A DNA stretch of 64,000 bases from an uncultured Acidobacteriota bacterium (GCA_963780895.1 CAWAEG010000007.1:128289-192288); one strand, 5' to 3'; shown: positions 24,276-44,428, numbered from the stretch's first letter. Translations and numbers: made by a program. The notes: a model not told the origin generated them from the letters alone.

Positions 24276-24752
24276 TTACCCAGCGAACCGCCGCCGCTCG
24301 AGGAACCCCATCTCCTGGCGGAATCGCTCGATGCGAGCGCGTTCGGCTCTCAGGTACTCGCACGCCTCGTGGATCTTCTGCGGCGACATCCCCGGCCGGC
24401 GGGCGATGTCCTCGCCCCACGCGATCAGGTTCTCATAGCCCGAGACAATGGCGAGGACCTCGCGACGTTCGATCTCCGTCAGGCCGCGCCAGCGTTCGTC
24501 ATCGGGGCCGTCGCCGGGCTGCCATTCGCTGATAGGCGACGGGATCGCAGTCAGGATTCGCGCGTGCTCGGTCAGCTCATCGACGAGCTCGCAGATGGCC
24601 TCCCCAAGCGTCGAGTCGTGTCGCTCGTCGCCCGTGTCGAGCAACGGAACGCCATCCGGGTCGCCGGGAGACTGAAGAAGACGCTGCAGGAGCAGCAACC
24701 GCCGATGCATCCGCCCGACGCGGTCCTTCAGACTCGGATCGGCGCTCCTCAT
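24276..24752 (-). CDS. hypothetical protein (158 aa)
   Basis: Ordinary composition and acidic. No recognised motif and no SD. Lies downstream of the haem peroxidase gene on the same strand. Confidence 0.5.
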   Translation of the reverse strand: MRSADPSLKDRVGRMHRRLLLLQRLLQSPGDPDGVPLLDTGDERHDSTLGEAICELVDELTEHARILTAIPSPISEWQPGDGPDDERWRGLTEIERREVLAIVSGYENLIAWGEDIARRPGMSPQKIHEACEYLRAERARIERFRQEMGFLERRRFAG

Positions 24753-24832
24753 TTTTTTAGGGCGTGCTGCACCGGCGTCCGACGAGCGGTCACAGAGGCC
24801 GCCGGCGAGAGCCGGACGCGGGGATTATACGC

Positions 24833-24900
24833 TCATCCTCGCGGTTTCCACGTCTGAAACGCGTTTTCGACGCCAGCAGCGGAAGACACGTTCAGGCAGG
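24833..24900 (-). pseudogene. duplicated 3'-end stub of the adjacent haem peroxidase gene
   Basis: The minus-strand translation ...LNVSSAAGVENAFQTWKPRG* parallels the true C-terminus ...VKPALQGVENAFAPWKPRG* (24922-). DNA identity is visible in ctcgcggtttcca..g.aaacgc.tt.tcgac. Confidence 0.55.
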
Positions 24901-24921
24901 CGAGCCCGCCGATGGTACCCG

Positions 24922-26709
24922 TCACCCTCGCGGTTTCCATGGCGCAAACGCATTCTCGACACCCTGCAGCGCCGGTTTGACCTCCGGGACGTGCCTCGCG
25001 AGCAGCGCCAGCATCGTCGTCTTCGTGATGTAGTCGGTGCCGAACTCCGTGTAGAGCCTGGCGCCGTAGTCGTCTGTGAAGAAGCGGTCGCTCTTCAGGC
25101 GGCGTGACGCCATCAGGACGAAGATCCGAAACGCCGTGTCGCTGAAGCCGAAGCCATCCGGCAGCGGCTCGGCGAAGAGCCCGGTCATCAGGTCCACCAT
25201 CTCGATGTTGTTCTCGTAGACCTTCTTGATCTGCTTGCGCCACTCCGGGTTGTCGGTGATCTCGTCGAACGACGCCAGCGGCTCCTTGTGCACCAGGCGG
25301 CGGAACTGGTTGTAGCGGGGCACGCCGCGCTCGCGGTCTCGGAGGATGTCCACCGCCGCCAGATCGAAACGCTCGCCGTTGTCACGCGTCAGGTTCTGCA
25401 GGTGCTTCGGATAGTTGTGAAGCGTGATGGCGCCGGGGTGTGACACGCCGAACGTATAGAACAGGTCCGCCATCGAGTGCCGCTCGACGACCGCCCGCGT
25501 CTTGCGCCCGGCGATGTCCGGCAGCGACCGGCGGTCGATTTCGCCGCCGGTCGCGTTCGATCGGAACACCACTTCGTCCGGGATGAGCGGGTGCATGCGA
25601 TAGACGGCGACGAATTCCTCGGTCAGCGAGTAGGGCGCCGTGTGATGGTCGGCTTTCGATCCGATGATGCCGCCCAGCAGCTCGTCGTCGCCGATGAAGG
25701 CGAAGACCTCCTGCAGGTCCGGGTTCACCAGCCCGTTCCAATTCGTATTCATCGCCATCTTCACGACGGGGTGGGGAAGGATCGCGGGCGTCCATTCGAC
25801 GGTGTGAATCTTGGCCATCAGCGCCGAGTTGATGAGCTTCGCCGTCGCGAAGAGCTGGTTGTCGGTCCAGCCGCGATTGAGCTTCGCCAGCTCGTCGCAC
25901 AGGTAGTTGTGCTCGAGCGCGAAGAGCGTGTGCAGCATCGACAGGCCAATCCACCAGTTGTCGGTGAAGCCGGTGCAGTCGAGCCCGGTGGCCGGATCGA
26001 CCGGGAGCAGCTTCCCGGACGCTTCCATCATCAGCTTGCCGCCCTGGCCGCTGCGGAGGCTGGCGGCCACAGCGGTCTCGCAGCCGTACACCTGCGACGC
26101 GTCCCACCAGTGGCTGTTGCTGTTGGTGTACGCGGGCGGACGCGTGGAGCCGGCCGGCCCCGGATCGGGCACGCTCCGACCGACCTGCATTTTGCCGCCC
26201 TGCCAGTCGTCGCCTGGCGCCAGCGGGATCTCAATCCCATCGGCGGGCGCGGACTTCTTGTGCACGAACCAGTCGTGGACCATGAACTGAATCCACGACG
26301 CGGCCATCAGGTTGAGGATGGTCGCGGGCTTGAACTCGTCGCGCGTCATCAGCTCACGGCTCACGATGCGCGGATTCGGAACCAGCAGGTTGGCGGTATC
26401 GGGGAAGACATGCTCGAGCGGGACGTTCCGCCCGAACCGCCGGCCCGCACTGCCCATCGCCGGATACTGCAGGTCGTTGTGTGTCCCCTCGATCGTGCGC
26501 TCGTTGCGCAACGCCGGATCGAGATCGGCGGGGATCGGCTTTTTCTCGAGCGCCGGCTCCTCAGTGTCGTGCAGATTCTTGGCGCGAAGCTCGTTGCGGA
26601 TCTCGATGAGCCTGGGCATCGCGAGCAGATCCGGCAGCTTGTACCAGGGTCGGCGATTCTGCAGGAAGCTTCCGATACGGCCGAGCAGCGTCTCGTCGGG
26701 CATGGGCAT
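24922..26709 (-). CDS. haem peroxidase-cyclooxygenase superfamily protein, alpha-dioxygenase-like fatty-acid dioxygenase
   Basis: 595 aa. WIQFMVHDWFVH (distal His region) and EEFVAVYRMHPLIPDE (the YRMH Tyr/His pair) match motifs I recall from plant alpha-DOX and bacterial homologues. Confidence 0.8.
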   Translation of the reverse strand: MPMPDETLLGRIGSFLQNRRPWYKLPDLLAMPRLIEIRNELRAKNLHDTEEPALEKKPIPADLDPALRNERTIEGTHNDLQYPAMGSAGRRFGRNVPLEHVFPDTANLLVPNPRIVSRELMTRDEFKPATILNLMAASWIQFMVHDWFVHKKSAPADGIEIPLAPGDDWQGGKMQVGRSVPDPGPAGSTRPPAYTNSNSHWWDASQVYGCETAVAASLRSGQGGKLMMEASGKLLPVDPATGLDCTGFTDNWWIGLSMLHTLFALEHNYLCDELAKLNRGWTDNQLFATAKLINSALMAKIHTVEWTPAILPHPVVKMAMNTNWNGLVNPDLQEVFAFIGDDELLGGIIGSKADHHTAPYSLTEEFVAVYRMHPLIPDEVVFRSNATGGEIDRRSLPDIAGRKTRAVVERHSMADLFYTFGVSHPGAITLHNYPKHLQNLTRDNGERFDLAAVDILRDRERGVPRYNQFRRLVHKEPLASFDEITDNPEWRKQIKKVYENNIEMVDLMTGLFAEPLPDGFGFSDTAFRIFVLMASRRLKSDRFFTDDYGARLYTEFGTDYITKTTMLALLARHVPEVKPALQGVENAFAPWKPRG

Positions 26710-26774
26710 CCCTCGAATTGCGCCGCGAAGAGCTGAGAAGGGAGGCGGAAAAGTCTGGCACGCAAACGCAGCAG

Positions 26775-26830
26775 AGTCAAAGGGTGATGTCGTACCGACA
26801 AGTGCTTTCCACTCCTATCGTACCGACTGC
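26775..26830. repeat. family B dispersed repeat, short copy
   Basis: gtcgtaccgacaagtgctttccactcctatcgtaccgac lies in the divergent region between the peroxidase and CHAT genes. Confidence 0.65.
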
Positions 26831-26887
26831 GGCCTCACGTCCGACGCTGCCAGTCTGTTCCCGAAACCGTGGGAGAATGCCGCCGCA

Positions 26888-28702
26888 ATGGCCAAGAAGT
26901 CACGCCCCACCTCGAGTCCGACCGAGCCTCCCGTTCAATCAGCGTCGACCACTGTTGAAGCCGAGCGGGCGATCGTTGTCGCCCGCGGAGGCCAACGCCG
27001 GATCGACGTCACGCTCGTGCACGGCAGCATCCTCGACGTGCCGACACGCGCGATCGTGCTCGGACTGTTTCGAAACGTCGATCCCGGCGGCGCGGCGAAG
27101 GCGATCGACAATCGTCTCGGCGGCGCGCTGACCGAGCTGATGCGATCGCGGACGGTGTCGGCCGAGGCCGGCACGGTCTTCGTTCTTCCCACGGCACGCA
27201 CCGGCCTCCTCGCCGAGATGGTCGTCTTCGCCGGCCTCGGGCCGTTCGATCGATTCAATTCGAGCGTGATCCAGCTCGTCTCCTCGAACCTCGTCCGGAC
27301 GCTCGTGCGGGGCAACGTCGAGGAATTCTCGGCGGTGCTCTTCGGCGGCGGCTCCGGTTTCGACGTGCGCGAATGCGCGCAGCACCTGCTCCGCGGCGTC
27401 CTCGGCAGCTTGCGCGACGTCGATCCGAGTCACCGGTTTCGCGGCATCACGATCTGCGAGCTGGACGCGGCGAAGTTCGATCAAATCCGCGACGAGATCT
27501 ACAAAGGCTGCCGGGACGAGTTCTGCCGCGACGTCGACGTGGTCGTGCGCGAACGGCGGCTGCCGGTCCCCGAACGCACGCCGGTCCGGACAGGCGCCCC
27601 GGCGGTCAAGCCGAAGCCGGGCGAAGGCGAGCCGCTGTACCTGCTCGTGCGCACCGATGCCGCGACGAGCACGAAGCTGACGCTTCGGTGTGCCGTGTTG
27701 ACGTCGGGCAGCAAGGCCGCGGTGCTCGAGGGCGTGTGCGAGGTCCCGCGGCGTGCGCTCGATTCGGAACTGGGCGCGATCGAGGACCTGAGCTTCAATA
27801 CGGCGGTGCTCACGAAGCTCGGCCAGCGGCTGGCGCGCCTCGCGCTGCCCGAGTCCGTCAGGACCGAGCTGGCCAAGTCCAAACCGCGGCACGTCGCGGT
27901 CGTGCACGATTTGGAATCCGCGCGTCTGCCGTGGGAATGCCTCGACCTCGACGGTTGGATTCCCGCGCTGACCGGCGGCATGAGCCGCCGCTACGTCGCG
28001 AACAACCTGGCGGTCGGCCGGTGGTCGGAACATCGCGTCACCGACCGCGAGCTGGCCTTGCTGCTCATCGTCGATCCGACGAGCGATTTGCCGGGTGCAG
28101 TGGTCGAATCCGAGGGCATTCGCAAGCTCGTCGCGGCCGACCCGCGCGTCCGCGTGACCACGCTCGTGAAGGGCGAGGCGACGCGGGACGCCGTGCTGCA
28201 CCACTTCCGCTCAGAACGCTTCGACGCCATTCACTACGCCGGCCATGCCCATTTCGATCCGCAGGTGGTGGGTGAGAGCGGGATCCGCTGTGCGGACGGC
28301 CCGTTGCGCGCGCTCGATCTCCTGAACCTGCGCAGCCTGCCGCCGTTGCTCTTCTTCAACGCGTGCGAGTCCGGCCGGTTGAGGAAGCTGAGGAAGCTGC
28401 GGTCCGACCGCAGCGAGCCGTCGCGGAAAGCCGCGCGGAAGACGCTTTCGGATACGGTCGGATTCGCCGAGGCGTTCATGAGATACGGCGTCATGAATTA
28501 CGTGGGGACCTACTGGCCGGTCGGCGACGACTCGGCGGCCGGCTTCGCGCGCGCGTTCTACAGCGCGCTGCTCGACGGACAGGCGATAGGCCCGGCGCTC
28601 ATCAGCGGCCGGCAAGTGGTGCAGAAGACGGACTCAGTGGACTGGGCGGATTACATCCATTACGGGGATCCGCGGTTCACGCTCAAGAAATCCACATCGT
28701 GA
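26888..28702 (+). CDS. CHAT-domain (caspase-fold) protease with N-terminal macro-like / LAP-N-like domain
   Basis: Start at ATG 26888 (MAKKSRP...). C-terminal His/Cys dyad in IHYAGHAHFD and LLFFNACESG. The N-terminal ~170 aa (IVLGLF...AAKAIDNRLGGALTEL...VVFAGLGP) resembles the macro-like N-domain of M17 aminopeptidases. Confidence 0.8.
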   Translation: MAKKSRPTSSPTEPPVQSASTTVEAERAIVVARGGQRRIDVTLVHGSILDVPTRAIVLGLFRNVDPGGAAKAIDNRLGGALTELMRSRTVSAEAGTVFVLPTARTGLLAEMVVFAGLGPFDRFNSSVIQLVSSNLVRTLVRGNVEEFSAVLFGGGSGFDVRECAQHLLRGVLGSLRDVDPSHRFRGITICELDAAKFDQIRDEIYKGCRDEFCRDVDVVVRERRLPVPERTPVRTGAPAVKPKPGEGEPLYLLVRTDAATSTKLTLRCAVLTSGSKAAVLEGVCEVPRRALDSELGAIEDLSFNTAVLTKLGQRLARLALPESVRTELAKSKPRHVAVVHDLESARLPWECLDLDGWIPALTGGMSRRYVANNLAVGRWSEHRVTDRELALLLIVDPTSDLPGAVVESEGIRKLVAADPRVRVTTLVKGEATRDAVLHHFRSERFDAIHYAGHAHFDPQVVGESGIRCADGPLRALDLLNLRSLPPLLFFNACESGRLRKLRKLRSDRSEPSRKAARKTLSDTVGFAEAFMRYGVMNYVGTYWPVGDDSAAGFARAFYSALLDGQAIGPALISGRQVVQKTDSVDWADYIHYGDPRFTLKKSTS

Positions 28703-28713: not shown

Positions 28714-31392
28714 TCAGCGAACGTTCAGGTGTCCTCTCAGCCGGATGTCCTTCGATGAGCTGCCAATCATGATGCGAAAGGATCCGGGTTCGACGACCCA
28801 GCGCAGATCGCGGTCGAGCATCCGCAGCTCGCGAGCGCCCAGCTCGAACGCCACCTCGCGGCGTTCGCCGGGCTCCAGGCGCACGCGCCTGAACGTCTTC
28901 AGCTCCATGACAGGGCGCGCGACCGTCGCGAGAACATCGCGCACGTACAGCTGCACGACCTCGTCGCCAGCCCGGCCGCCTGAATTCCTGACGGCGAACC
29001 GGATGGTCGCCGCCGTCGTCGGCGCGATGTCGGCCGGATCGATCGACAGGTCCGAATACTCGAACGTCGTGTAGCTCAACCCAAAGCCAAACGGAAACAG
29101 CGGCTGCCCCGTGAGGTCGACATAGTCGTCGCCCCGGCCGGTGGGCTTGTGGTTGTAGGACAGCGGCAACTGGCCTTCGGCGACCGGAAAGGTGATCGGC
29201 AGCCGGCCGCTCGGATTGGCGTCGCCGAACAGGATGTCGGCGACGGCGTCGCCGCCTGCTTCGCCCGGATACCAGGCGTCGAGCACGGCGCCGGCTCGAT
29301 CGAGCCACGACATCGTGATGGCGCTGCCCCCAATGAGCACGACGACGGTCGGCTTGCCCGTTGCGGCGACGGCCTCGATGAGCGCCGGCTGGCGGCCGGG
29401 CAGGCCCAGCAGAGCGCGATCGCGAAACTCGCCCTCCTCGACGCCAGCCACGACAATCGCGACATCGCTTTCCCTCGCGGCCGCGACCGCCTGATCGATC
29501 GCCGCGCGCGAGTCGTCGACGACGCCGGCATCCCACACCAGCCGCAGCCGCGCGTTGCCCGTGGTCTCGTAGTACTCCAACCGGATCCGGCGGCTCATTC
29601 CCGGCCCCAGGGCAACGTCGGCGATGCGTCTGCCGAACGACTGCTTTTTCCAGTTGTCGATGACGAGCTGTTCATCGAGGTAGAGCCGGTACCCATCATT
29701 GCCTTCGACGCCAATCCGCGCGACACCGGCGGCTGGCGCCGTGAGTGTGCCGGTCCATCGGGCCGAGTACCAGTCGAATGGAATGCCGCGGCCGGGCGAG
29801 TTGAGGGTCCAGCGAAAGTCCATGCGCGTGTCGGTGCGCGTCAGTCGAGGCGGCCCCTGGAGCGCCGGGTTGTCGAAGTATTCGCCGGCGAGACCGCGCG
29901 CCTCCTGCCCTGCGGAAACCGACGCAAGCGCCGAGGCTGGAACCGTCTCGAACTCGCGGATCGTTCGGCCCGGGCCTGGCGCAAAACGGACCGTCGCCGA
30001 CGGCCCGAGCGCACGACGAATGCCCTCGAGAATCGAGACGCTCCCGTTGCCGGGACCGCTGTACCCGCCAAGGCGTGCTTCGGTGGCATCGGAGCCGATC
30101 ACGGCGACCGACTTCACGGGCCTGGCGATCGGCAGCAGGTGCGCATCGTTCTTGAGCAGGACGATCGATGCCCGGGCGGCCTCACGCGCCAGCGCGCGAT
30201 GGTCGGCGTGACCATTGATCACTGCGGCCGCCTCGACATCGACGTACGGCTGCTCGAACAGGCCCAGCTCGAACTTCACGCGGAGCACCCGCGAGACCGC
30301 CGCGTCGATCGTCGCGATCGGGATGAGGCCGCGCTGGAACGCGTCGAGGTACGGCCGCTGCTGGCCGTACGACGACTGAAAGACGACGTCCAGCCCGGCT
30401 TCGAAGGCGTGCGCGGCCGCCGTGCCCGTGTTCGCCTCGGTCATGTGCAGAACCGTCGCGCCGCTCGTGGCCGAGGCGTCCGAGATCACGAACCCCTTGA
30501 ATCCCCAGTCGCGCTTCAGGATGTCCGTCAGGAGCCGCCGATTTTGTGTTGCCGGCGATCCGTCGATGGAGTTGTAGGCCGTCATGACCGAGCGTGCGCC
30601 GGCCTCCAGGGCCGCCACGAACGGTGGGAAGTACCGTTCGGCCAGCGCACGTTCACTGTGATCGATCGGATAGCTGTCGCGGCCGCCCTCGCCGACGTTG
30701 GCCACGAAATGTTTCGGCGTCGCGACGACGCCCGCCCGCTCGAAGGCGTTGACGTAGGTGCGGCCCATCGCGGCGGAAAGCACGGGATCCTCTCCATACG
30801 TTTCCTCGACGCGTCCCCATCGCACGTCGTCCGCGATGTTGACGACCGGCGACAGCACCTGGCGAATGCCCCGGCTCCGAGTCTCGCGGGCGATGGCATC
30901 CGCGACACGCGCGACGACAGATTCGTCCCAGGTCGCCGCGAGCGCGATGGCCGATGGGAACATCGTCGCGCCTTCGCGGGTCAGGCCGTGAACGGCTTCC
31001 TCGAACGGAATGATCGGGATCCCGAGGCGTGTTTTCTCGACGAAGTACCGCTGGATCGTGTTGATTCGCTGAGCGTGAGCACGCGCGAGCGCAGCCGGCG
31101 TTGCGGCGCCTGATCGATCGGGAGATCGGTCCCCTTGCGACCCGGTCGAAATCTGCAGTCCAAAAATGCCGTGAGAGTAGTCGTTGGCCGGCGTATCGAG
31201 ATCGCCGGGGATCATGAACAGCTGCCAGAATTTCTCTTCGAGGGTCATCCGCGCGAGGAGGTCGCGCACACGCTCGTCGATCGGCAGGCTCGCGTTCCGA
31301 TATTGCGGCGTCGGCTCCTGAAACGCCCAGGTCGAGGCCGCCAGCAGCAGCGGACCCAGCAACGCCAGGCGCCGTGTGCCCCAGATCACCAT
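28714..31392 (-). CDS. GH3 beta-glucosidase with inserted PA14 domain
   Basis: 892 aa. Signal peptide and the GH3 opening LTLEEKFWQLFMIPG. The PA14-like segment is GLAGEYFDNPALQG...YSARWTGTL...GNDGYRLYLD. Confidence 0.9.
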   Translation of the reverse strand: MVIWGTRRLALLGPLLLAASTWAFQEPTPQYRNASLPIDERVRDLLARMTLEEKFWQLFMIPGDLDTPANDYSHGIFGLQISTGSQGDRSPDRSGAATPAALARAHAQRINTIQRYFVEKTRLGIPIIPFEEAVHGLTREGATMFPSAIALAATWDESVVARVADAIARETRSRGIRQVLSPVVNIADDVRWGRVEETYGEDPVLSAAMGRTYVNAFERAGVVATPKHFVANVGEGGRDSYPIDHSERALAERYFPPFVAALEAGARSVMTAYNSIDGSPATQNRRLLTDILKRDWGFKGFVISDASATSGATVLHMTEANTGTAAAHAFEAGLDVVFQSSYGQQRPYLDAFQRGLIPIATIDAAVSRVLRVKFELGLFEQPYVDVEAAAVINGHADHRALAREAARASIVLLKNDAHLLPIARPVKSVAVIGSDATEARLGGYSGPGNGSVSILEGIRRALGPSATVRFAPGPGRTIREFETVPASALASVSAGQEARGLAGEYFDNPALQGPPRLTRTDTRMDFRWTLNSPGRGIPFDWYSARWTGTLTAPAAGVARIGVEGNDGYRLYLDEQLVIDNWKKQSFGRRIADVALGPGMSRRIRLEYYETTGNARLRLVWDAGVVDDSRAAIDQAVAAARESDVAIVVAGVEEGEFRDRALLGLPGRQPALIEAVAATGKPTVVVLIGGSAITMSWLDRAGAVLDAWYPGEAGGDAVADILFGDANPSGRLPITFPVAEGQLPLSYNHKPTGRGDDYVDLTGQPLFPFGFGLSYTTFEYSDLSIDPADIAPTTAATIRFAVRNSGGRAGDEVVQLYVRDVLATVARPVMELKTFRRVRLEPGERREVAFELGARELRMLDRDLRWVVEPGSFRIMIGSSSKDIRLRGHLNVR

Positions 31393-31544
31393 CGGTCGTA
31401 CACCGCGATGAGTCTATGTCGAAGGGCCGCCGCTTGCCGCAAGGCAGCGTGATCGGCCGCCTGCCTCGCGGCGCTCGCAAAGGTCGGTCACCGGAACACG
31501 CGACACCGATCTGGAAAACGCTGTAGGGGGCCGCAATCCACCGG

Positions 31545-34684: not shown

Positions 34685-34720
34685 GATGCGGCGTCGTCCT
34701 CCGCTGAAACTCGTGACCCT

Positions 34721-34821
34721 AGGGCCGTTCTCACTTTCCTGTAGCGAGCTAATTGCTCAATTCTGCCGAAAGTCTCGCGACCCTTGTCGATTTTGCTCTA
34801 CGAGGAAGTGAGAACAGCCCT
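34721..34821. repeat. ~100-nt inverted-repeat element, copy 2 (arms agggccgttctcactttcc / ggaagtgagaacagccct)
   Basis: Arms at 34721-34739 and 34804-34821. It starts 36 nt upstream of the SIR2 ATG, and its distal arm covers the stop codon of the FadL-like gene. Colinear with the 5321-5419 copy. Confidence 0.7.
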
Positions 34822-36169: not shown

Positions 36170-37209
36170 GGCCCGTTTCGAATGAATGTCACTCGGATAG
36201 TCACTTCGGCATTCCCGTTTGGAGTGACGACCTCCAGCGTGACGTCTCGGTCCGTGACCGTCCCGACGTTGCCGGATCCAAAACTGCCGCACCCGAGTCC
36301 GAGGCCAGACAGCGTCGGACTTGTGCGTGACACCGTGAGGACGTTATTCGACTGTGGAAATCTCCAGATGTAGTTGGTGATCCCGCCCTGTGGCGTCGAC
36401 GCGCCCGCGTCAAACGTACATTTCATGAGGTTCGTTGAGCCTCCCCCGGGCGCGGGAATCGACTGCACTTCGCATTGTTGACCCGTCGCGATCGTGTTGG
36501 GGTCAGGGATCACTCGGAACGTGGCGACGATCGGCACGGCGTTGATCGCGAGATTGGCAGTACGCGTCGTAGCCCCGAGTGTTCCTGTAATGGTGACGTT
36601 CGCCGCCGCGGCGGTCGTGACGGTCACCGTGAATGCCGCCGTCGTATTGCCCTGGGTGACGGTGACGCTCGTCGGCACCGTCGCGGCGCCGCTATTGCTC
36701 GACAAGCCGACCGTGGTCCCGCCCGATGGCGCTGGCCCCGAAATCGTCACGGTGCCCTGGACGGTACCGATGCCGCTCACCGCCATCTGCGCCAGCGTGA
36801 CCGACACCAAATCGATGGGCGCGGCGGTGACGTTGAGGTTCGCCGTCTGCGCTCCGCCAAAGTTCCCGGTAATCGTCGCCGTGCCGGCCGAGACTCCCGT
36901 CACCGCGAAGTTGGCCGATTGAGATCCTTCTGGAATCGACACCGTGCCGGGTACGGTCGCAACGCTGGTATTACTGCTCGACAGCGTCACACCCGCGCCG
37001 CCGGTTCTGGCCGCGGCCGAGAGTGTTGCGGTTCCCTGAATCGTCTGCCCGGCGACGACCGAACCGCCTGACGCGAGCGTGATCGACTGCAGCACCGGTG
37101 TCGGCGCGTTGTTGCCGCCGTTGCCGTTACCGCCGCAGGCGGACAGCCCGCCGAAGGTCACGAACGCAGTGACGAACCCCACGATGCGGGAACGTTGGAT
37201 GTGAGACAT
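36160..37209 (-). CDS. lipoprotein with three Ig-like (Big-type) repeats and a Cys-containing C-terminal domain
   Basis: Start at ATG 37209. Lipobox GGLSAC. Three ~70-aa repeats of the form V..G.T.QGT.T.S......G..V.LSS.N..VATVP..V....G...A.F.V.......TITG......TANL.V.A. Confidence 0.7.
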   Translation of the reverse strand: MSHIQRSRIVGFVTAFVTFGGLSACGGNGNGGNNAPTPVLQSITLASGGSVVAGQTIQGTATLSAAARTGGAGVTLSSSNTSVATVPGTVSIPEGSQSANFAVTGVSAGTATITGNFGGAQTANLNVTAAPIDLVSVTLAQMAVSGIGTVQGTVTISGPAPSGGTTVGLSSNSGAATVPTSVTVTQGNTTAAFTVTVTTAAAANVTITGTLGATTRTANLAINAVPIVATFRVIPDPNTIATGQQCEVQSIPAPGGGSTNLMKCTFDAGASTPQGGITNYIWRFPQSNNVLTVSRTSPTLSGLGLGCGSFGSGNVGTVTDRDVTLEVVTPNGNAEVTIRVTFIRNGPCG

Positions 37210-37341
37210 GTCAACCTTCCTGGCCGAAACCTTCACGAGAAACGCCCGCTGGGGAGTTGCAGGGCGCGAAAACAGGCGTGGGGAGCTGGAATCTTAGCAG
37301 ACTCCCCGTTTGGTGAGGATGAAGCAGACTGGCCGCCCTCG

Positions 37342-38742
37342 TTACGACCCGGGCGTGAACAGCCGCTGCAGGGCGGAGAAATCGTAGCTGAGCCCGATCT
37401 GTCCGCGGACGAACCGCTCCTTCGTCAACGAATTCGGATCATTTGTGTAGATGATGGAAACCGGGATCCGTCCCCCGCCTTTCACGGGCACTTCGACGCT
37501 GGTGAAGATCTTCCAGGTGTCTTCGGCCGGCACCGGCAGAGAGGCCGTATCGGTGAACATCGCCAGACTCCCGCCGACACTCCAGTCGAGCGTCCGGCCA
37601 GCCACGATGGCGTTCGGCACCAGGTGCAACGTCACGCCGCCGGACACCGTCCAGATCTTCGTCTGGAACAACTGGTCGACGCCGAGCCGGATGTCGTCGG
37701 TCAACGCGTACTGCGCGTTCAGCGTGAGGTCCGACGGGCCGAGGCCGATGTCGAAGAGCGCGGCGAACGCGTATTTGTTCCGGCCGGCTTCCTGTGTCAG
37801 GTGCGTGCCCGCTACCTTCACGCTCAATTGCGGCGCTTTGGCGAGGCGCGACTTGATCGCGGCGAGACCTTCGCCGACCTGCTTCGCCAAGAGACTCTGC
37901 ACGATGGCGGCGTCTTCGAGCGCCTGCTGCGGCGGCTCGCCGGCGCGTGGCGCCGTTCCGACAAGAGAGAGCAGCACCGCGGCCTTTTGCGTCAGCAGGC
38001 CGCCGGCCCGGACGGTCGTCGGCGACCATCGTGCGCTCCGGGGATCCTTGTCGCCCCACACCCGGACCTTGACGTCCCATCCGAACGTGTCGAGCAGCCG
38101 GTCGAAGTCGGGGAAGCCGCTGAACCCCGTGATTTCGCTTTCCGGGATTTCCGCGCCGAAGACGACGGTGCCGCTGAACCGGCGCGCGAGCGAGTGCCGC
38201 TGGTAATCGGCGATCGACGAATAGAGATCGGAGTCCTTCAGTGTGACCAGCGCGAGCGCGTTCACGTTGAGGCTGATGGCCGTCTTGTCGGCGCTCGCCA
38301 CACTCGCCAGATCGGCGGCCAGCGCCAGGAGCGACGTCGAACCGCTGCGCTCCGGGAGACCGGACGTCATGGGATTCGTGCTCGTGGCGTTCACCGACGT
38401 CGGGACTCGAGACTCGACCTGTTCGTCGATGAGTGCCTGCACGTATGCCGGCGTGAACAGCGCCAGCAGCTCCGCATCGTCGCGCAGCCGCTCGAGGACT
38501 TTCGTGTAGACCGCGACTTTGGCGTCCCGCGCGCCGGTCAGACGGCGGTCGGCGACGGTGAGGCCCGCATCACGCGCCGCCTCCGCGAGGAATCTCGTCC
38601 ATAACTCCGCGAGCCGTGCGTCCACGGCCGCATCGATTTCCGAGCGGGACGCGCGCTGCGCGTTGGCTGGCGTCGCGGACGCCAGAACGGCAAGCGCCAC
38701 GGCAAGGCCGGCGACGGCACGGCGACAGGTCACGGCGGTCAC
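37342..38742 (-). CDS. secreted hypothetical protein (~467 aa)
   Basis: GTG start at 38742 (VTAVTCRRAVAGLAVALAVLASATPANAQ signal peptide), directly after the TGA of the upstream gene at 38745-38747. The C-terminal half alternates like a beta-barrel. No recognised family. Confidence 0.6.
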   Translation of the reverse strand: MTAVTCRRAVAGLAVALAVLASATPANAQRASRSEIDAAVDARLAELWTRFLAEAARDAGLTVADRRLTGARDAKVAVYTKVLERLRDDAELLALFTPAYVQALIDEQVESRVPTSVNATSTNPMTSGLPERSGSTSLLALAADLASVASADKTAISLNVNALALVTLKDSDLYSSIADYQRHSLARRFSGTVVFGAEIPESEITGFSGFPDFDRLLDTFGWDVKVRVWGDKDPRSARWSPTTVRAGGLLTQKAAVLLSLVGTAPRAGEPPQQALEDAAIVQSLLAKQVGEGLAAIKSRLAKAPQLSVKVAGTHLTQEAGRNKYAFAALFDIGLGPSDLTLNAQYALTDDIRLGVDQLFQTKIWTVSGGVTLHLVPNAIVAGRTLDWSVGGSLAMFTDTASLPVPAEDTWKIFTSVEVPVKGGGRIPVSIIYTNDPNSLTKERFVRGQIGLSYDFSALQRLFTPGS

Positions 38743-38744
38743 GC

Positions 38745-39137
38745 TCAGGCCCGGACGAGAGCGAATCCGACGCTGTGATCGGGATCCTTTTTCGCTTCGG
38801 ATCGCTTTTCGAGGATGTGGACCGGCCCGCCGTCGATCGAGTAGGCGACGCTGTGGCTCCACTCCTTGACGGCATGCGCAAACGCCCAGGCGAGGATGAA
38901 GTCGCCGGGCTTCACGGCGACGGGCTCCAATCGGTCGACGAGCGACTTGATCACTGTCCGGCCGTCGTAGGCGATCGTGTAGGGCACGACCATCGGGCCG
39001 ACGTCCACGATGACGTCGAGGGTTGCGCCGGCCGGCACGACGATGATCGGTACGGCCGCAGCCTGCGCGGCTTCCGCGGCGGGCACCGTCGCAACTTGCC
39101 GCGTGACTCGCTTTCGGGTGCGCGTTCTCCTGGCCAT
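38745..39137 (-). CDS. hypothetical protein with basic N-terminus (130 aa)
   Basis: ATG at 39137 with GGAGG upstream (MARRTRTRKRVTRQ...). First gene of the minus-strand run 39137->34820. Confidence 0.55.
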   Translation of the reverse strand: MARRTRTRKRVTRQVATVPAAEAAQAAAVPIIVVPAGATLDVIVDVGPMVVPYTIAYDGRTVIKSLVDRLEPVAVKPGDFILAWAFAHAVKEWSHSVAYSIDGGPVHILEKRSEAKKDPDHSVGFALVRA

Positions 39138-39235
39138 GCGTGCCTCCGCCGCGCGCGGGAAACCGGCCTGGAACTGTCTCTGGGGAGGCAGGAAAATGTA
39201 GCACACTACAGGCCGCGCCGCGGCTTGGAGGTTCC

Positions 39236-39766
39236 ATGAGTCTGAATGCTCTCAGCAGTCAGGAGATGGTCCGGCGGGGCCTCGCGCCGTGGGCGCGCCG
39301 GCCGCGATCGGGCAACCTCGAAAGCGCCGGCGACTGGGAGCCGCGCCCGATCGCCGACGACAACCGCGTGACGAATGCGCTGAACGCGCTCGTCGGATAC
39401 ATCCCGACCGAGGTCATCACGCTCTACGTCGCCGCGCTCTCAGCCGAAGCGGCGTTCCATGCCACGTTCCCGGTTATCGACGCGGCGGCGATTCTCTGGT
39501 TCTTCGTGGTCCTCACGCCGCTGCTCCTGCTTCTGATTTATCTGAGCAAGGTCGCCGCGACCGGCGACAAGCTCCCGGGGCCGCGGCTCTGGCCGTGGTG
39601 GAAGATGGTCGCGGCGACGATCGCGTTTTTCGTCTGGGCGCTGGCGGTGCCAGGCAATCCGTACTTGAAAGACGCGGCGGCGGCCGCGGCCGGCTTCGGC
39701 GCGATGTTCACCTCGACGCTGCTCAGCGTGATGACGCCGATCTTCGAGCGGCCGGCGCCTGGGTGA
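39236..39766 (+). CDS. integral membrane protein (3-4 TM), unknown family
   Basis: ATG at 39236 with GGAG upstream. Hydrophobic segments ILWFFVVLTPLLLLLIYL, MVAATIAFFVWALAV and GFGAMFTSTLLSVM. Confidence 0.6.
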   Translation: MSLNALSSQEMVRRGLAPWARRPRSGNLESAGDWEPRPIADDNRVTNALNALVGYIPTEVITLYVAALSAEAAFHATFPVIDAAAILWFFVVLTPLLLLLIYLSKVAATGDKLPGPRLWPWWKMVAATIAFFVWALAVPGNPYLKDAAAAAAGFGAMFTSTLLSVMTPIFERPAPG

Positions 39767-39828
39767 AATGACCTCGGAGGTCATTTCCGCGGAAAACCGC
39801 GGCAGGAAATGACCTCCGAGGTCATTTC
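39765..39828. terminator. triple-hairpin bidirectional terminator between convergent genes
   Basis: gaaatgacctcggaggtcatttc (39765-39787), ccgcggaaaaccgcgg (about 39787-39802) and gaaatgacctccgaggtcatttc (39806-39828). The outer palindromes contain the TGA of the + gene (39764-39766) and of the - gene (39822-39824). Confidence 0.7.
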
Positions 39829-41114
39829 AACCCCCTCCACATCGTCCACGGCCCGCGAAACACCAGCGCTTCGGCGGGCGGCAGACCGGCACGCTTCGGC
39901 ATCAGGTTCAGCGCCTGGAAGCCGTCGAGCAGGAGCGGCGGCGAAGCCGGCATGGAGGGTTTGAGTCCTGCCAGCTTCGCGAGCGCCTCCGCGTCGGGCA
40001 ATTGCTTGAAGTAGCCTCGCAGGTTGCCGACCACCGTCCGCAGATCCTGCACCTCGCCCCGCCGCGCCAGCTCGTAGGCGGAGAGCAACGCGACGATCGG
40101 CTCGAACCATTTGAAGTAAAGCAGGAACTGGAGCTCGTTGGCGGTGAGCAGCGTCTTCAAGTCTTCGGCGCGCGCAAAGGCCCGCTGGACTTCGACGCAC
40201 CGGCGGACGAGCCGCAGCGGTCCGCTCACTTCCTTCAGGCCCTCGGTGCTCTGATCGAGCCACAGCCCGCTGCCCTCGGGAAGGGTATTGAGGAACCTCC
40301 GCAGCGGCAGGATGAACTGCTGGATCTGCAGCGGACCTTTGGCCTCTTGCGCGAGCGTCACCAGCGTCCCGCGGCCGTGGAGCAGGCACACGCCGAACGT
40401 GACCGGCGCGTTGCCGTCTACCTGCACTGTCAGGTACCGGTAACCCACCGGGCCGCCCGGAGCGGAGATCTCGAAGAGGCCAGGAAACGCCGAGTGCGGC
40501 GTGACGGGTTGGAGCGGCGTCCGCCAGTCCTTGCTCAATGCGGCGCGTAGCCGGACGTTCGGTTGCTCGAAGCCAGCCAGCGCATAGAAGGCGGTCTCGA
40601 TCTTCGGGCCGTCGAAGCTCGCGAGGGGCAAGGAACCCAGCTTCGAAAAATCACCGGGCCCGCCGGTGATTCGCGCCGCCCCGATCAAGGCGAGCCACAG
40701 GTCGAGGCCCTGATCCGGCGTCGGGCCGAGCGACTCGGAAAAATCGACGGCGCCACTCCCATGCGACCCGTGAATTCCACCGAGCAGCGCGTGGCGCAGC
40801 GGGCTGTCTGGCATCTGCGTGAGATCCATCACCCGCGGACCGGCCTCGAGCGTGACTTCACGGCGATCGATGACGACGCCCCGGTCGTTGTGGGTCTCCA
40901 TCCGGTAGGTGCCGGGCGCGAGCTCGACGGTGCTGGATGCGGTCAGGTGCTCGGTCCTGTCCTTGCCGCCTCGGACGACGACCTGCGCGCCGGCGGGCAC
41001 GACGATGTCGACGACCGCGGTCGGCAGCGGGGCAGCCGCTCCGCCGCCTCCACGTGTGGGGCCGCGACCGGTCCCGGTTCCACCCGTTTCAGCGGCGCGA
41101 CCGAGAGACTGCAC
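39822..41114 (-). CDS. hypothetical protein: beta-rich segment plus ~300-aa helical module (may be the frame-shifted continuation of the caspase-like gene)
   Basis: The track ORF has a GTG start at 41114 and overlaps the upstream gene by 172 nt. An alternative ATG is at 40901. VDIVVPAGAQVVVRGGKD...VELAPGTYRMETHN resembles the beta segment at the end of the caspase-like protein. No recognised family. Confidence 0.55.
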   Translation of the reverse strand: MQSLGRAAETGGTGTGRGPTRGGGGAAAPLPTAVVDIVVPAGAQVVVRGGKDRTEHLTASSTVELAPGTYRMETHNDRGVVIDRREVTLEAGPRVMDLTQMPDSPLRHALLGGIHGSHGSGAVDFSESLGPTPDQGLDLWLALIGAARITGGPGDFSKLGSLPLASFDGPKIETAFYALAGFEQPNVRLRAALSKDWRTPLQPVTPHSAFPGLFEISAPGGPVGYRYLTVQVDGNAPVTFGVCLLHGRGTLVTLAQEAKGPLQIQQFILPLRRFLNTLPEGSGLWLDQSTEGLKEVSGPLRLVRRCVEVQRAFARAEDLKTLLTANELQFLLYFKWFEPIVALLSAYELARRGEVQDLRTVVGNLRGYFKQLPDAEALAKLAGLKPSMPASPPLLLDGFQALNLMPKRAGLPPAEALVFRGPWTMWRGLK

Positions 41115-42154
41115 CTCGAACTGGAGGGCGCAGTCGTCGTAGAGATCTGCCGGAACGGGTCCGTCCGGGCCGGACGATTGTCCGCGCCGGCCTTCTTGGG
41201 CTGCACCTGGACGAAGTAGTCGTCGGGCGGCGCCTGGAACGTGCGTGTCGGACCGGTGAACGTGAAACGGTCAACGACCTGACCCAGGTCGTTCTTCACC
41301 TGCACCTGGAATGCGTCCGTTGCACCCGCGTTCTCGACGTTGACCGAGCAGGTGTACTTGAGCGACGGATCCAGCTTTCGGATGACGCCATCGCCGCCTT
41401 CGCTCCGCGGGTCGACCTCCGTGTCGAGCCGCCGCTCGATGTAGCCCCGAAGAGAGTCGAACAGCACGGTAAACGTCCCTTCGAAGAAACGCTTGGCTTT
41501 GCCCTTGCCGTTCAGCCCGTCGATCAGCGCCTCGGGAAAGCCGCCGGCGACGTTCGCGACAGCCCCGACGGTCGTCGAGCACAGCGTGTAGACCGGCGCC
41601 TTTTTCCGGACGGATGGATCGAAGACGAGACCGAGCGGCGCGACCTTGATGTCTTTTTCGGTGATCTTGTTCCGGCACGCGTCGATGAAGTAGAAGTGCC
41701 CGCACCGCGTCGAGCCCGGCGCCGTGACAGATCCGAGACACATCTTCAGCCATTTCTGGATCTCGTCGAGCTTGAGGCAGGCGTCGCCCGATTCGTCCCG
41801 CTTGACGAAATCAGCGGCGATCAGCACGTCGGCCGTCGGCACGTCGTCCACGTCCACGTACGAAAATCCGTGGCCGCTGAAGTAGAAGAACAGATCATCG
41901 GTCGTGTCTTTCGCGATGTCCTTGAAGCGCTTCAGCTCCTGCTTGATGGCCGGCCGCGTCGCGTCGCTCGTCCGTCCCGTCAGCGCCGGATCTTCCGCGC
42001 AGAAGAAGATGTCCGCGGCCGCCAGCTTCTGAGTGCCGATCAGCCAGTCCCGAAACGCCAGCGCGTATTTGTGGGTGCCGGGAAGCGTGCTGTTGAGCCC
42101 CTCCTGCATGTGGGCGTAGTGTTCGATCGCGATGATGAACGCGCGTTTGGCCAT
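40943..42154 (-). CDS. caspase-like (peptidase C14 fold) protease
   Basis: RAFIIAIEHY..., the His in LFFYFSGHGF and the Cys in HFYFIDACRNK (compare QACRG). The last ~65 aa (RQISTTTAPSSSRCS...SSTSSCPPARRSSS) look like out-of-frame translation. Confidence 0.7.
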   Translation of the reverse strand: MAKRAFIIAIEHYAHMQEGLNSTLPGTHKYALAFRDWLIGTQKLAAADIFFCAEDPALTGRTSDATRPAIKQELKRFKDIAKDTTDDLFFYFSGHGFSYVDVDDVPTADVLIAADFVKRDESGDACLKLDEIQKWLKMCLGSVTAPGSTRCGHFYFIDACRNKITEKDIKVAPLGLVFDPSVRKKAPVYTLCSTTVGAVANVAGGFPEALIDGLNGKGKAKRFFEGTFTVLFDSLRGYIERRLDTEVDPRSEGGDGVIRKLDPSLKYTCSVNVENAGATDAFQVQVKNDLGQVVDRFTFTGPTRTFQAPPDDYFVQVQPKKAGADNRPARTDPFRQISTTTAPSSSRCSLSVAPLKRVEPGPVAAPHVEAAERLPRCRPRSSTSSCPPARRSSSEAARTGPST

Positions 42155-42174
42155 GAGGTGTCTTGGGCGGGCGG

Positions 42175-43134
42175 CTACGGCGTACGGGTCGCGTCCGCGA
42201 CGAACTCGGCGGCCGCCGCAGCCGACACCGCGCCGTTCCGGTACATGAACTCACCGGTGAAGTGGAGGCCCACGACCGCGCCCGTCTCGAGCGCCATGAC
42301 GGGCGAGCCCGAGTTGCCGCCGAGCGTCGAGCAGTCGTGAAAAACCAGATCGCCGCGCGCGGCGATGAGCTCGCCGACCGCACCGCGCTTGACGCCGTAG
42401 CGGTCCTGGTAAATCGCGTCGACGAAGAGGGGATTGCGGTCGTCTTTGTACGGGTACCCGAGCGTCCCGACCATCAGGTGGGCCGGCAGCGCGCCCGCGT
42501 CGAATTGCAGTACCGGACGCGTGTCGGGTACCTGCACCTGCAGGAGCGCCATGTCCAGCGCCGGGTGAATCGCCACGACCTTCAGGATCGGACACGCCGG
42601 CACGGGTTCGGGTCCGTCGTATTCCTGATAGAAGCGAATCACCGCCATTCCCGAATCGAGCTCATCCGCCCCGTGCGAGAGCACAGAGACCACATGGTGG
42701 TTCGTCAGCACGAGATCGGGAGCGACCAGGAACCCTGTGCCGACGTGCGGATTGGACCCGGCGGTGCGATCGAGACGGCCGACCGAATACAGAATCGGCG
42801 CGCTGTTCGTGCAGAACCGATCCCAGGCGGCCGAGACCTGCGGCTGGTAGACGCTGCTGCCACGCTCGGCCGGCAGGGGCTGCAGGCGGCCGCGGATCGA
42901 GAGCGGAGCCGGGCGCATCATCCGGATGACGAACTCGAGCGCGGCAAGCTCGGTCGCCGTCGGCCGCTCACGTCCCGATCGCAGCTTGTCCAGCGCGGCC
43001 TGCGCCGCCTGTTCGCTGTCAGGCACCTTCGGCAGGCCGACAATGGCCCGGACTTTCGCGACCGCCTCGTCAACGCGGAGTTGACCGAACGTCCGCTGGG
43101 CCCGGCCGTAGAGATTCTGGTCGTCGGTCGCCAT
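42175..43134 (-). CDS. trypsin-like (chymotrypsin-fold) serine protease with N-terminal extension
   Basis: Start at ATG 43134. Triad context GTGFLVAPDLVLTNHHV, DMALLQV and STLGGNSGSPV. The ~120-aa N-terminal region is unassigned. Confidence 0.8.
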   Translation of the reverse strand: MATDDQNLYGRAQRTFGQLRVDEAVAKVRAIVGLPKVPDSEQAAQAALDKLRSGRERPTATELAALEFVIRMMRPAPLSIRGRLQPLPAERGSSVYQPQVSAAWDRFCTNSAPILYSVGRLDRTAGSNPHVGTGFLVAPDLVLTNHHVVSVLSHGADELDSGMAVIRFYQEYDGPEPVPACPILKVVAIHPALDMALLQVQVPDTRPVLQFDAGALPAHLMVGTLGYPYKDDRNPLFVDAIYQDRYGVKRGAVGELIAARGDLVFHDCSTLGGNSGSPVMALETGAVVGLHFTGEFMYRNGAVSAAAAAEFVADATRTP

Positions 43135-43141
43135 CGCGCGT

Positions 43142-44428
43142 TCAGGAGATCGTGTTCTCGAAGATCTTCGTGCCGTCCGGCAGCAGGACACGTTCGGTCA
43201 GCTTCGGTCCGTCGAAGTGGAGCGTCATGTACGCGTGCGGGACGAAGTCGTTCTCCCGACCCTTGATGTCGGGGTTCGGTCCGTCGAGCGCCAGGCAGCG
43301 GGGGCTCCACGGCTTTTGCGGATTGACTTCGAGCCGCTTCCACGTGACGTAGGTTTCAGTTCGCTCCGTCGGCGCGCTCCGCACTTCGCGCTTGCGCGCT
43401 TCGGGGATGCCCCCGTTGCCGAGGCACCTCGCGAACAGTCCCCAGTCCGTGTGTTTGTCGTACAGCACGCACTGGTGCTCGTGCCCCCAGTACCATGCGG
43501 TGATCGTTCGGCCCGCGAGCAACACGTCGAGCTTCGCCTTGAGGCCCGTCCCCTGGTTGTCGAGCCTCGAGAACAGTTGCTGGTGTGAGAACAGGACAAC
43601 TTTCCGCTGCCCTCGGCCGTTCACCAGCTGCTCCAGCCACGTCACCTGCTTGGGATCCATGTCGTGGTCGACATACGCCGTGTCGAGCCCGACGATCAGC
43701 CAGTCTTTGTTCTGCATCGCGAAATAGCTGGCCGCCTGGTTGAATCGCGGCAGCACGATGTCGAAGTAGCCGTACCCGCCGGAATACATCTCGTGATTCG
43801 AGTTGATCGCGCGGTGCAGGCGGCCGGCGCCGAACGGCCAGAGTTTCAGAAACCGTTCTTTGACTTCCTCCGCGGTTCCCGAGTAGTAGACGTCGCCCAG
43901 GTGCAGCACGAGGTCGAATCCGCCGGTCGCGGAGATGTGCTGCGCGATTCGGGGCGCGCCGTACAGGCCCGTGCCCCAGTCGCCGGCCATGGCCACCTTG
44001 AATGAATCCGGCACGGTCTCGGGCGGCGCCGTCGACCACACGAACGGATGCGCCTCGTCCCGCTTGACCCAGTCGAGCGTGCTCTTGAGCCATCCGAACC
44101 AATCGCGCCCTTCGAACCCTGTGCCGAACTTGACCTCCTGTCCGCCCGGGCCGAGCGGCTTGCCGTCGAGCGCGAGCTGCGCGAGCCGGCTCTGCAGTCG
44201 CGAGACTTCGGCGTCGGGTGCCGTCACCATCACGTCGTCGCCGGATTCGGCCGCTTCCTCTTCGAGACGATCGCGGAGCCGGCGGTACTGGCTGAGGAGC
44301 ATCGCCCGCTCGACCTGATCGACTTCGGCTTTGACGTTTGTTGCTTCGGCCGCTTCGATGCGGCTCGGTTCAGGAAGGCTGCGCACCGTGACGATCGCGT
44401 CGCGTGCAGAAAGGGACTGGTCGGCCAT
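43142..44428 (-). CDS. calcineurin-like metallophosphoesterase with N-terminal coiled-coil extension
   Basis: Motif series AMAGDWGTG, HLGDVYYSG, NSNHEMY, VLFSHQQ and WYWGHEHQ. The ~130-aa charged N-terminal region is unassigned. Confidence 0.8.
   Translation of the reverse strand: MADQSLSARDAIVTVRSLPEPSRIEAAEATNVKAEVDQVERAMLLSQYRRLRDRLEEEAAESGDDVMVTAPDAEVSRLQSRLAQLALDGKPLGPGGQEVKFGTGFEGRDWFGWLKSTLDWVKRDEAHPFVWSTAPPETVPDSFKVAMAGDWGTGLYGAPRIAQHISATGGFDLVLHLGDVYYSGTAEEVKERFLKLWPFGAGRLHRAINSNHEMYSGGYGYFDIVLPRFNQAASYFAMQNKDWLIVGLDTAYVDHDMDPKQVTWLEQLVNGRGQRKVVLFSHQQLFSRLDNQGTGLKAKLDVLLAGRTITAWYWGHEHQCVLYDKHTDWGLFARCLGNGGIPEARKREVRSAPTERTETYVTWKRLEVNPQKPWSPRCLALDGPNPDIKGRENDFVPHAYMTLHFDGPKLTERVLLPDGTKIFENTIS

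Follow-up and report, generated by a model that had tools for sequence, protein, structure and literature searches.

The subject of this analysis is a window of 64,000 nucleotides (C7:128289-192288) in the 5.9-Mb, 11-contig genome of an uncultured Acidobacteriota bacterium, and within it a block of about 20 kb at positions 24276-44428. This block is a genuine, non-random cluster of cassettes of the defence or cell-death type, with functions assigned from homology and gene neighbourhood: a SIR2-nSTAND1 gene pair, a protease joining a macro-fold domain to a CHAT domain (macro-CHAT), and an operon encoding a metallophosphoesterase (MPE), a trypsin-like protease and a caspase with a characteristic C-terminal domain (CTD), accompanied by a plant-type fatty-acid alpha-dioxygenase (alpha-DOX). 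We favor, with moderate confidence, the reading that the block is a chromosomally fixed, genus-specific accessory set of individually rare, horizontally scattered conflict-system cassettes, which would act as abortive-infection or regulated-cell-death modules, the frameshifts in two of its genes being assembly errors. The host is a soil acidobacterium of the order Vicinamibacterales, because the ortholog of one island protein in a sister species (G001) carries the label 'Vicinamibacterales bacterium' and the read sets nearest to the source are soil and rhizosphere metagenomes. An initial annotation of the window had likened the block to islands described for multicellular-like or predatory bacteria; this is not supported, the host being a soil Vicinamibacterales and the caspase operon occurring in Bradyrhizobium and Afipia as well. 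To our knowledge, there is no evidence that this host, Bradyrhizobium or Afipia are multicellular or predatory.

The clustering exceeds what chance would produce. In 400 genomes sampled evenly across the phylum, macro-CHAT gave 3 matches, the window-type SIR2 subfamily 1 and the caspase-CTD 0, counts that are too low for co-localisation distances and serve as base rates only. These three families, each present in <=1% of the genomes, lie within 17 kb in the window and recur together elsewhere, which bears out the enrichment in immunity and cell-death-type domains described in the initial annotation. In unrelated genomes, the cassettes again stand side by side or are fused, far beyond chance: with a base rate as high as 5%, two or more SIR2-STAND co-locations in a set of 41 independent caspase loci would still have a probability of <=3e-5.

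Genes were called with GC3 guidance and domains were assigned with Pfam, and every domain call of the initial annotation proved correct in kind and in position. The block is flanked by genes for a pyrroloquinoline quinone (PQQ) dehydrogenase on the left and an M43 peptidase on the right, and its features, including inverted repeats resembling miniature inverted-repeat transposable elements (MITE) or repetitive extragenic palindromic (REP) sequences, are as follows:

23963-24274, no strand: Family B palindrome, at the left border between the PQQ dehydrogenase gene and a small 158-aa gene
24276-24752, minus strand: 158-aa helical protein, downstream of and co-directional with alpha-DOX
24922-26709, minus strand: plant-type fatty-acid alpha-dioxygenase (Pfam An_peroxidase, E 1e-107)
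26888-28702, plus strand: macro-fold and CHAT protease, 604 aa (Pfam Peptidase_M17_N and CHAT), divergent from alpha-DOX
28714-31392, minus strand: GH3 beta-glucosidase with a PA14 insert (Pfam)
31545-33711, minus strand: nSTAND1-clade STAND NTPase, ~725 aa (Pfam nSTAND1), frame broken
33704-34684, minus strand: SIR2_2 NADase-type effector, 326 aa (Pfam SIR2_2, 5e-23)
34719-34824, no strand: ~105-bp inverted-repeat (MITE/REP-like) element, between SIR2 and the envelope operon
34820-39206, minus strand: four-gene envelope operon, genus-specific
39140-39766, plus strand: small multi-pass membrane protein (hydropathy)
39822-42154, minus strand: caspase with two Ig-like beta-sandwiches and a ~330-aa CTD, ~775 aa (Peptidase_C14 at 40943-42154)
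42175-43134, minus strand: standalone trypsin-like serine protease, ~319 aa (Trypsin_2 at 42175-43191, 1e-18)
43142-44428, minus strand: MPE, first gene of the three-gene operon (Metallophos, PF00149, 4e-9)

The island proteins are single-copy within the source genome. The 158-aa protein has no match in Pfam, PADLOC or NCBIfam, and its gene is kept at the same site in L110, a relative at 96% nucleotide identity. A gasdermin-type pore former was considered for the block and rejected, as no small open reading frame (ORF) matched a gasdermin or other pore-forming family in the same three resources.

Within the genus, the block is inherited stably. A search with the 20-kb DNA query recovered the entire block from G001 with its gene order unchanged, at 75-86% nucleotide identity, while the flanks are collinear at 70-82%, values that exclude a block diverging faster than its surroundings. 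The layout in L110 is the same as in the window, and in three species of the genus the position, order and divergence of the block match those of the flanks; the position of GH3 is the only difference in the block between the window and G001. The initial annotation had looked to variability among close relatives and to base composition for a distinct island, but the region is collinear in G001, L110 and G002 (a further species of the genus), with conservation like that of the flanks, and its GC content equals theirs. The contrary outcome that it had envisaged, a syntenic core genome across the family, was not found either: the genes are absent from 14-16 of the 17 genera of the family. A close homolog of macro-CHAT occurs in 1 of 16 other genera of the family and one of SIR2 in 2 other genera, whereas in a sample of 28 other genera from the family and order, alpha-DOX has homologs in 5 and the envelope-operon protein env2 in none, being confined to the genus. 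The proposal of a defence or cell-death island thus stands as far as a non-random cluster of conflict-type accessory genes is concerned and fails as regards variability within the genus and mobility, since gene content is variable only at family level.

The first unit is the strictly ordered three-gene operon of MPE, trypsin-like protease and MALT1-like caspase-Ig-CTD. Full-length caspase-CTD members were recovered from 43 reference-genome and metagenome loci, 38 of which have sequence upstream, and the order MPE, trypsin, caspase is kept in 34-35 of these 38, in at least seven phyla (taxa include Acidobacteriota, Alphaproteobacteria with Bradyrhizobium/Afipia, Planctomycetota, Gemmatimonadota, Nitrospira, Myxococcota, Verrucomicrobiota and Actinomycetota). 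The caspase catalytic dyad, GHG...DACR, is invariant in the family alignment, and the AlphaFold2 (AF2) model (pLDDT 83) comprises a caspase domain, two Ig-like domains separated by a linker, and then an alpha/beta and a helical domain. Its top Foldseek matches are the MALT1 paracaspase, ranked first, and metacaspases, in a whole-chain comparison dominated by the caspase domain, which assigned no fold to the C-terminal ~330 aa. The trypsin triad is intact (H, D, GNSGSP), and the 319-aa protein has no transmembrane (TM) segment. The MPE carries the motifs GDWG, GDVYY, SNHE, FSH and GHEH, the set of purple acid phosphatases (PAP), behind a ~140-aa N-terminal extension, and a sequence search found no relative in the PDB. 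For the two proteases, PADLOC returned no more than partial domain matches ('caspase', 4e-13; trypsin, 4e-11).

This arrangement resembles protease-activated effector systems, in which cleavage by trypsin or caspase unlocks metallo-beta-lactamase (MBL) nucleases or hydrolases (PMC12799240; 10.1101/2025.11.14.688446), and MPE has been listed as a protease-associated, uncharacterised effector (10.1101/2025.11.14.688446). As in the trypsin-MBL (Avs/Hachiman/Lamassu), caspase-hydrolase and canu modules, the effector gene stands immediately upstream of a trypsin-like protease gene, to which it is adjacent and with which it is co-inherited; the Ig-bearing caspase, moreover, resembles MALT1, as does CanA (PMC12799240). 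There are also differences. The putative effector is a Metallophos protein with PAP-type motifs and so neither an alpha/beta-hydrolase nor a nuclease of the MBL fold, the trypsin stands by itself with no fused sensor, and two proteases of different classes share the operon. Membership in canu was rejected, its defining feature being absent. An EACC1-caspase system, whose hallmark is an EACC1 protein, small and with one TM segment, from a gene 5' of that for the caspase (PMC7159879), was rejected as well, since the gene upstream of the caspase encodes the 319-aa trypsin-like protease without a TM segment. The presence of the trio in cultured Bradyrhizobium and Afipia makes a two-protease cascade acting on a phosphoesterase directly testable.

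The second unit pairs SIR2 with a downstream nSTAND1 gene, and the two are obligate, translationally coupled partners: the SIR2 stop codon overlaps the STAND start, and the same order was found in every case examined (L021-L026, L028, L057, L111, G012, three times in G164, G015 and G001). In three unrelated metagenomic contexts the nSTAND1 gene likewise overlaps and follows a SIR2_2 gene; transposases and a HepT/MNT pair lie beside the pair in one metagenomic context and a TIR protein near another, and the defence-type neighbors seen around its homologs comprise transposases, HepT/MNT, TIR_2 and TumE. The SIR2 protein has the motifs GAGAN, NYDD and KIHG and gives only partial ThsA/SIR2 matches in PADLOC (ThsA-like, 4e-15). 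The STAND protein has the Walker motifs GPSGVGKSS and LLIILDQFEE, and its assignment to nSTAND1, a clade defined in conflict systems (PMC8195603), rests on 71 bits for the window fragment and 155 bits for the G001 ortholog against a PF20703 cut-off of 27.1. One TM helix is followed by a coiled-coil or helical tail that is predicted to be extracytoplasmic. Not a single PADLOC match was obtained for STAND, the intact G001 ortholog P0001 included.

With Avs5 and other SIR2-STAND proteins the pair shares a SIR2 NADase-type effector, a STAND NTPase and a variable C-terminal region; in Avs5, oligomerisation of the STAND module activates SIR2 (PMC11897194). Avs5 is a single polypeptide, whereas the window has two coupled genes, and the NTPase of the window belongs to the nSTAND1 clade, matches no PADLOC Avs model and ends in a TM helix and predicted extracytoplasmic tail. 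Assignment to Avs was not retained, given the separate SIR2 and STAND genes and the zero PADLOC matches of the intact ortholog, and neither was assignment to Thoeris (I-IV), as no island ORF contains a TIR domain and SIR2 matches the ThsA models only in part. The acidobacterial genome G164 contains three such pairs (C21:201299-203454, C44:26272-28328 and C31:28198-30374) with STAND frames of 483-994 aa, which look like paralogous sensors differing in their C-terminal domain.

The third unit is the macro-CHAT protein, which belongs to a conserved group of proteases of the caspase family whose N-domain has a macro fold. In the AF2 model (pLDDT 82.7, pTM 0.83), the N-domain superposes on macroH2A1.1 (2fxk, 1zr3) with TM scores of 0.71-0.74 and a root-mean-square deviation of ~3 A, in support of the 'macro-like' call of the initial annotation, and it superposes also on M17 N-domains. 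Conserved Gly-rich loops (G68, G79, G116-G118, G153) are suggestive of predicted binding of ADP-ribose or a derivative, and two homologs have been named O-acetyl-ADP-ribose deacetylase by JGI. The CHAT assignment is given by Pfam (2e-26) and by the residues H453 and C493, invariant in the family alignment; Foldseek matches of the fold are Csx29 (Craspase), separase and SAVED-CHAT. Membership in Craspase was rejected, a defining feature being absent. Distant family members have an extra N-terminal lipase-like alpha/beta-hydrolase. In L114 (2705-9458), the gene for a macro-CHAT homolog of 47% identity lies between two other protease genes, a subtilisin (S8) gene 7 nt ahead of it and a tricorn-like one behind it, which makes this another multi-protease arrangement.

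A caspase-family protease with a nucleotide-binding-type domain beside an NAD-consuming enzyme recalls type IV Thoeris and SAVED-CHAT, and suggests second-messenger-gated proteolysis; in the former, TIR-made N7-cADPR activates a caspase-like protease (10.1101/2024.10.24.620036). Here the producer would be SIR2 rather than a TIR or cyclase, the sensor domain has a macro fold rather than SAVED, and the association is facultative, being seen in 1 of 8 contexts.

Macro-CHAT was ancestrally tail-to-tail with the STAND gene, and the GH3 gene now between them (segment 28714-31526) is a recently translocated passenger, moved without inversion into the CHAT-STAND junction. The translocation is placed in the lineage of the window because G001 has GH3 elsewhere (C22:235063-237690), beside a GH109-galactokinase sugar cluster on the far side of the PQQ dehydrogenase gene, and in G002 the CHAT gene directly abuts STAND; L110 shares the insertion. 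On the 5' side of GH3 lies a ~100-bp repeat (31428-31526) with copies on several G001 contigs, whose summed contig depth in a rhizosphere metatranscriptome is ~20-fold higher than that of neighboring genes (209 vs ~10).

The cassettes are connected with one another at several loci. At L028 the trypsin and caspase genes, a CHAT+SIR2 fusion protein and nSTAND1 form one overlapping, co-directional array. The trio and the SIR2-nSTAND1 pair are 3.4 kb apart at L057, and at L111 a SIR2-nSTAND1(WD40) pair of a divergent subfamily adjoins a macro-CHAT gene (62% identical). At L038 the trio, a 738-aa protein of no known family, a lipase-like hydrolase of the same Pfam families as those fused to distant macro-CHATs, and alpha-DOX are co-directional. 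L111 and L113 both have NHL-repeat, NMO and macro-CHAT genes, and SIR2-nSTAND1(WD40) is present only in L111, a presence/absence polymorphism of that cassette. Plain co-location, in which independent defence systems would share one permissive spot with no signalling or proteolytic cross-talk, is a possible explanation to which we give distinctly less credence than to functional modules. It accounts well for the many trio loci, the majority, that have no SIR2, STAND, CHAT or alpha-DOX, for the 7 of 8 contexts outside the genus in which macro-CHAT stands alone, for the solitary SIR2-nSTAND1 pairs of L021-L026, and for the window itself, where the cassettes are on different strands with the envelope operon and GH3 in between. 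The single array with a CHAT-SIR2 fusion at L028, however, is hard to explain without functional coupling, and the pairing at L111 brings macro-CHAT together with a SIR2-nSTAND1 subfamily divergent from that of the window.

In the module reading that we favor, the membrane-anchored nSTAND1 would sense a trigger, oligomerise and switch on the SIR2 NADase, which would deplete NAD+ and release products of the ADP-ribose type; such a nucleotide would probably be bound by the macro domain of the CHAT protease, licensing proteolysis in a manner comparable to type IV Thoeris and to the cA3 to SAVED-CHAT pathway. In a second arm, the caspase-Ig-CTD protein would be sensor and initiator, the trypsin-like protease the intermediate, and the MPE a latent effector or executioner activated by cleavage, as in trypsin-MBL, caspase-hydrolase and canu systems; alpha-DOX may add a lipid-oxidation output. 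The domain vocabulary (nSTAND1, caspase, trypsin, SIR2/TIR, calcineurin-like phosphoesterase) and the combinatorial logic are those of the conflict systems of Kaur, Burroughs, Iyer & Aravind (2020, 2021: nSTAND1, EACC1-caspase, NucA-trypsin; PMC7159879, PMC8195603). The block differs from these: it lacks an EACC1 TM protein ahead of the caspase, a recognisable EAD/Death-like adaptor and a MoxR-vWA or GTPase core, and its host is not known to be multicellular. Three widespread uncharacterised units outside PADLOC and NCBIfam are thus brought together (the SIR2-nSTAND1 pair, the macro-CHAT family and the MPE-trypsin-caspase operon), and the link between SIR2 and macro-CHAT suggests that NAD+ cleavage may lead to caspase-family proteolysis by a new route.

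Several observations weigh against this reading. The block is stable rather than hypervariable within the genus and has no mobility genes, which is atypical of classical defence islands, and PADLOC v2 and NCBIfam recognise no complete system in it, so that the PADLOC check suggested in the initial annotation yielded partial, domain-level matches and no validated or catalogued system. Coupling between the cassettes is facultative: SIR2-nSTAND1 adjoins macro-CHAT in 1 of 8 contexts outside the genus, and most trio loci occur without any other cassette. As a match for the macro-fold domain, the M17 N-domain is about as good as true macro domains, and it does not bind ADP-ribose; the PAP motif set of the MPE need not imply a nuclease or a nucleotide target. 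Mid-block stand an accessory envelope operon and a membrane protein gene that have no evident link to the cassettes. Expression is suggested by ~99%-identical, RNA-derived contigs of a rhizosphere metatranscriptome that cover CHAT, GH3, FadL, env2, trypsin/caspase and MPE, but these may include DNA carry-over.

The repeated association of alpha-DOX with immune-type modules is the most surprising element of the block. The enzyme, called an alpha-dioxygenase-like haem peroxidase in the initial annotation, is indeed homologous over its full length to plant fatty-acid alpha-dioxygenases, with matches to the rice and Arabidopsis enzymes (4kvj, 4hhr) at E~1e-100. It contains the motifs WIQFMVHDW and EEFVAVYRMHPLIPD, which we take, on the pattern of the plant enzymes, to hold the haem-related residues: distal His in one motif set, and catalytic Tyr with proximal His in the other. 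It differs from plant alpha-DOX1 and rice alpha-oxidase, whose motifs it shares, in being bacterial and embedded next to STAND, NADase or caspase modules. Although patchy among relatives, the gene lies beside STAND, NADase or caspase modules three separate times: in the genus of the window, in L038, and in G015, where a second copy is divergent from a TIR/DUF4062-nSTAND1-WD40 gene array. This unexpected neighborhood hints that lipid oxidation may serve bacteria as an immune output. A bolder proposal, which we regard as speculative and rather unlikely, would make alpha-DOX the effector or signal arm of an NLR-like immunity: sensing by nSTAND1-NADase or caspase would prompt a lipase licensed by proteolysis (a separate protein in L038, part of macro-CHAT in distant homologs) to free fatty acids, whose peroxidation would yield an oxylipin signal or a ferroptosis-like membrane death, with SIR2 ADP-ribose products gating macro-CHAT in parallel. 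If true, this arm would be a prokaryotic counterpart of the pathogen-induced alpha-DOX1 of the plant hypersensitive response.

The envelope operon in the middle of the block is genus-specific accessory DNA and not housekeeping. Its four genes are:

38745-39206, minus strand: small protein
37342-38889, minus strand: secreted beta-rich protein (signal peptide)
36160-37236, minus strand: lipoprotein with Ig-like repeats (lipobox)
34820-36292, minus strand: FadL/PorV-like outer-membrane barrel (Pfam Toluene_X; PorV/FadL matches sub-threshold)

The adjacent membrane protein gene (39140-39766) is conserved in G001, and its product has no family match in Pfam, PADLOC or NCBIfam. A FadL-like channel, a lipoprotein and a fatty-acid alpha-dioxygenase in one place could point to non-immune physiology, that is, envelope or lipid remodelling, stress dormancy or developmental cell death, in which the handling of fatty acids would fall to alpha-DOX and the FadL-like porin, and the regulation of host proteins to the proteases and SIR2. 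Stable inheritance in the genus, as for a physiological locus, and apparent expression in rhizosphere RNA without a known phage challenge fit this account. SIR2-macro pairs also reportedly take part in lipoylation-linked ADP-ribosylation, in the SirTM operons said to have been described by Rack and colleagues in 2015. We nevertheless consider such a role unlikely: the envelope operon travels with no cassette in other genomes, the gene families are extremely patchy, apparently spread horizontally and lie beside toxin-antitoxin modules and transposases elsewhere, and combinations of STAND with NADase, caspase, CHAT and TIR are a hallmark of conflict systems (PMC7159879, PMC8195603).

The frame disruptions that the initial annotation reported in the STAND and caspase-like genes are present in the deposited sequence and were localised against the intact orthologs of G001, each a single ORF (STAND 727 aa, caspase 774 aa); tblastn with these places the breaks at 33505-33518 and 41168-41195, respectively. 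The STAND gene has one extra base at 33503 (+1), which is missing from the metagenome contigs X1 and X7 (99% identical) and from RNA-derived contigs (X10), and L110 (96% identical) reads through the site. In the caspase gene, extra bases occur at 41166 and 41184, and the metagenome contigs X2 and X6 (~90% identical) and G001 have neither. None of the three sites is a long homopolymer. The gyrB gene of the same assembly (C1, minus strand, ~1061885) has its motifs KGKILNVE and YKGLGEMNPE in different frames, and the motif EGDSAGG was not found in any frame; this frame change indicates assembly indel errors in essential genes. Because the extra bases are missing from all relatives and read sets and gyrB is frame-broken too, the three +1 insertions are most likely assembly errors and not pseudogenisation, so the argument of the initial annotation from pseudogenised defence genes falls, and in the organism itself every part is most likely intact. 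That the block is a dead defence island under erosion, with STAND and caspase as true pseudogenes, is accordingly a very improbable alternative: the broken frames of the deposited sequence and the GH3 gene and MITE-like repeats inserted between modules would suit it, but the extra bases are absent from the sister species, the 96% relative, four metagenomes and the RNA contigs, an essential gene is broken likewise, and both halves of each gene retain family-typical sequence and catalytic motifs. More generally, apparent 'pseudogenised defence genes' in long-read assemblies of the metagenome-assembled-genome type can be artefacts.

The initial annotation had seen no integrase, transposase, tRNA or direct-repeat boundary, and this was confirmed: Pfam detected neither an integrase nor a transposase domain across the island and the 15 kb on each side of it, the window contains no tRNA, and no flanking direct repeats were found at the block boundaries. 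An integrative island, integrative and conjugative element or prophage would be expected to show an integrase, an attachment site and a composition shift, none of which was found. Recent acquisition in one piece as a mobile genomic island, which a gene content restricted to the genus and the repeats at the left border might recall, is the most remote of the explanations, contradicted by the missing mobility genes, by GC content equal to the flanks, and by the same position, order and flank-like divergence in three species of the genus.

The repeats reported on the left side of the block were recovered by a repeat search. Family B forms a ~310-bp palindrome at 23963-24274 with three ~28-nt units per arm, and further units lie at 17163-17198 and 26789-26827. 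The 28-nt unit contains …GTCGTACCGAC…GCGCTTTTCAG…, and these single copies stand in the divergent promoter region of alpha-DOX and CHAT and at the 5' end of the GH109 gene, a placement that suggests a shared regulatory or REP-type site. The ~105-bp element at 34719-34824 has terminal inverted arms of 17-19 nt, belongs to the same family as 5321-5419 and has dozens of copies across G001 and G002; because it is absent at the SIR2-FadL site in G001, it behaves like a recently inserted MITE/REP. The intergenic repeats, this element included, have no match in Rfam. Between the convergent membrane-protein and caspase genes (39761-39832) there is a 28-nt inverted repeat, 96% complementary with a 16-nt loop and multi-copy in G001 and G002, that looks like a bidirectional terminator. 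The right flank is more plastic than the island: the FG-GAP/LGFP repeat gene at 45825-48737 is non-syntenic in G001, where its homolog lies on contig C39, the genes for DUF454 and DUF1554 have exchanged places relative to G001, and collinearity stops near 52900.

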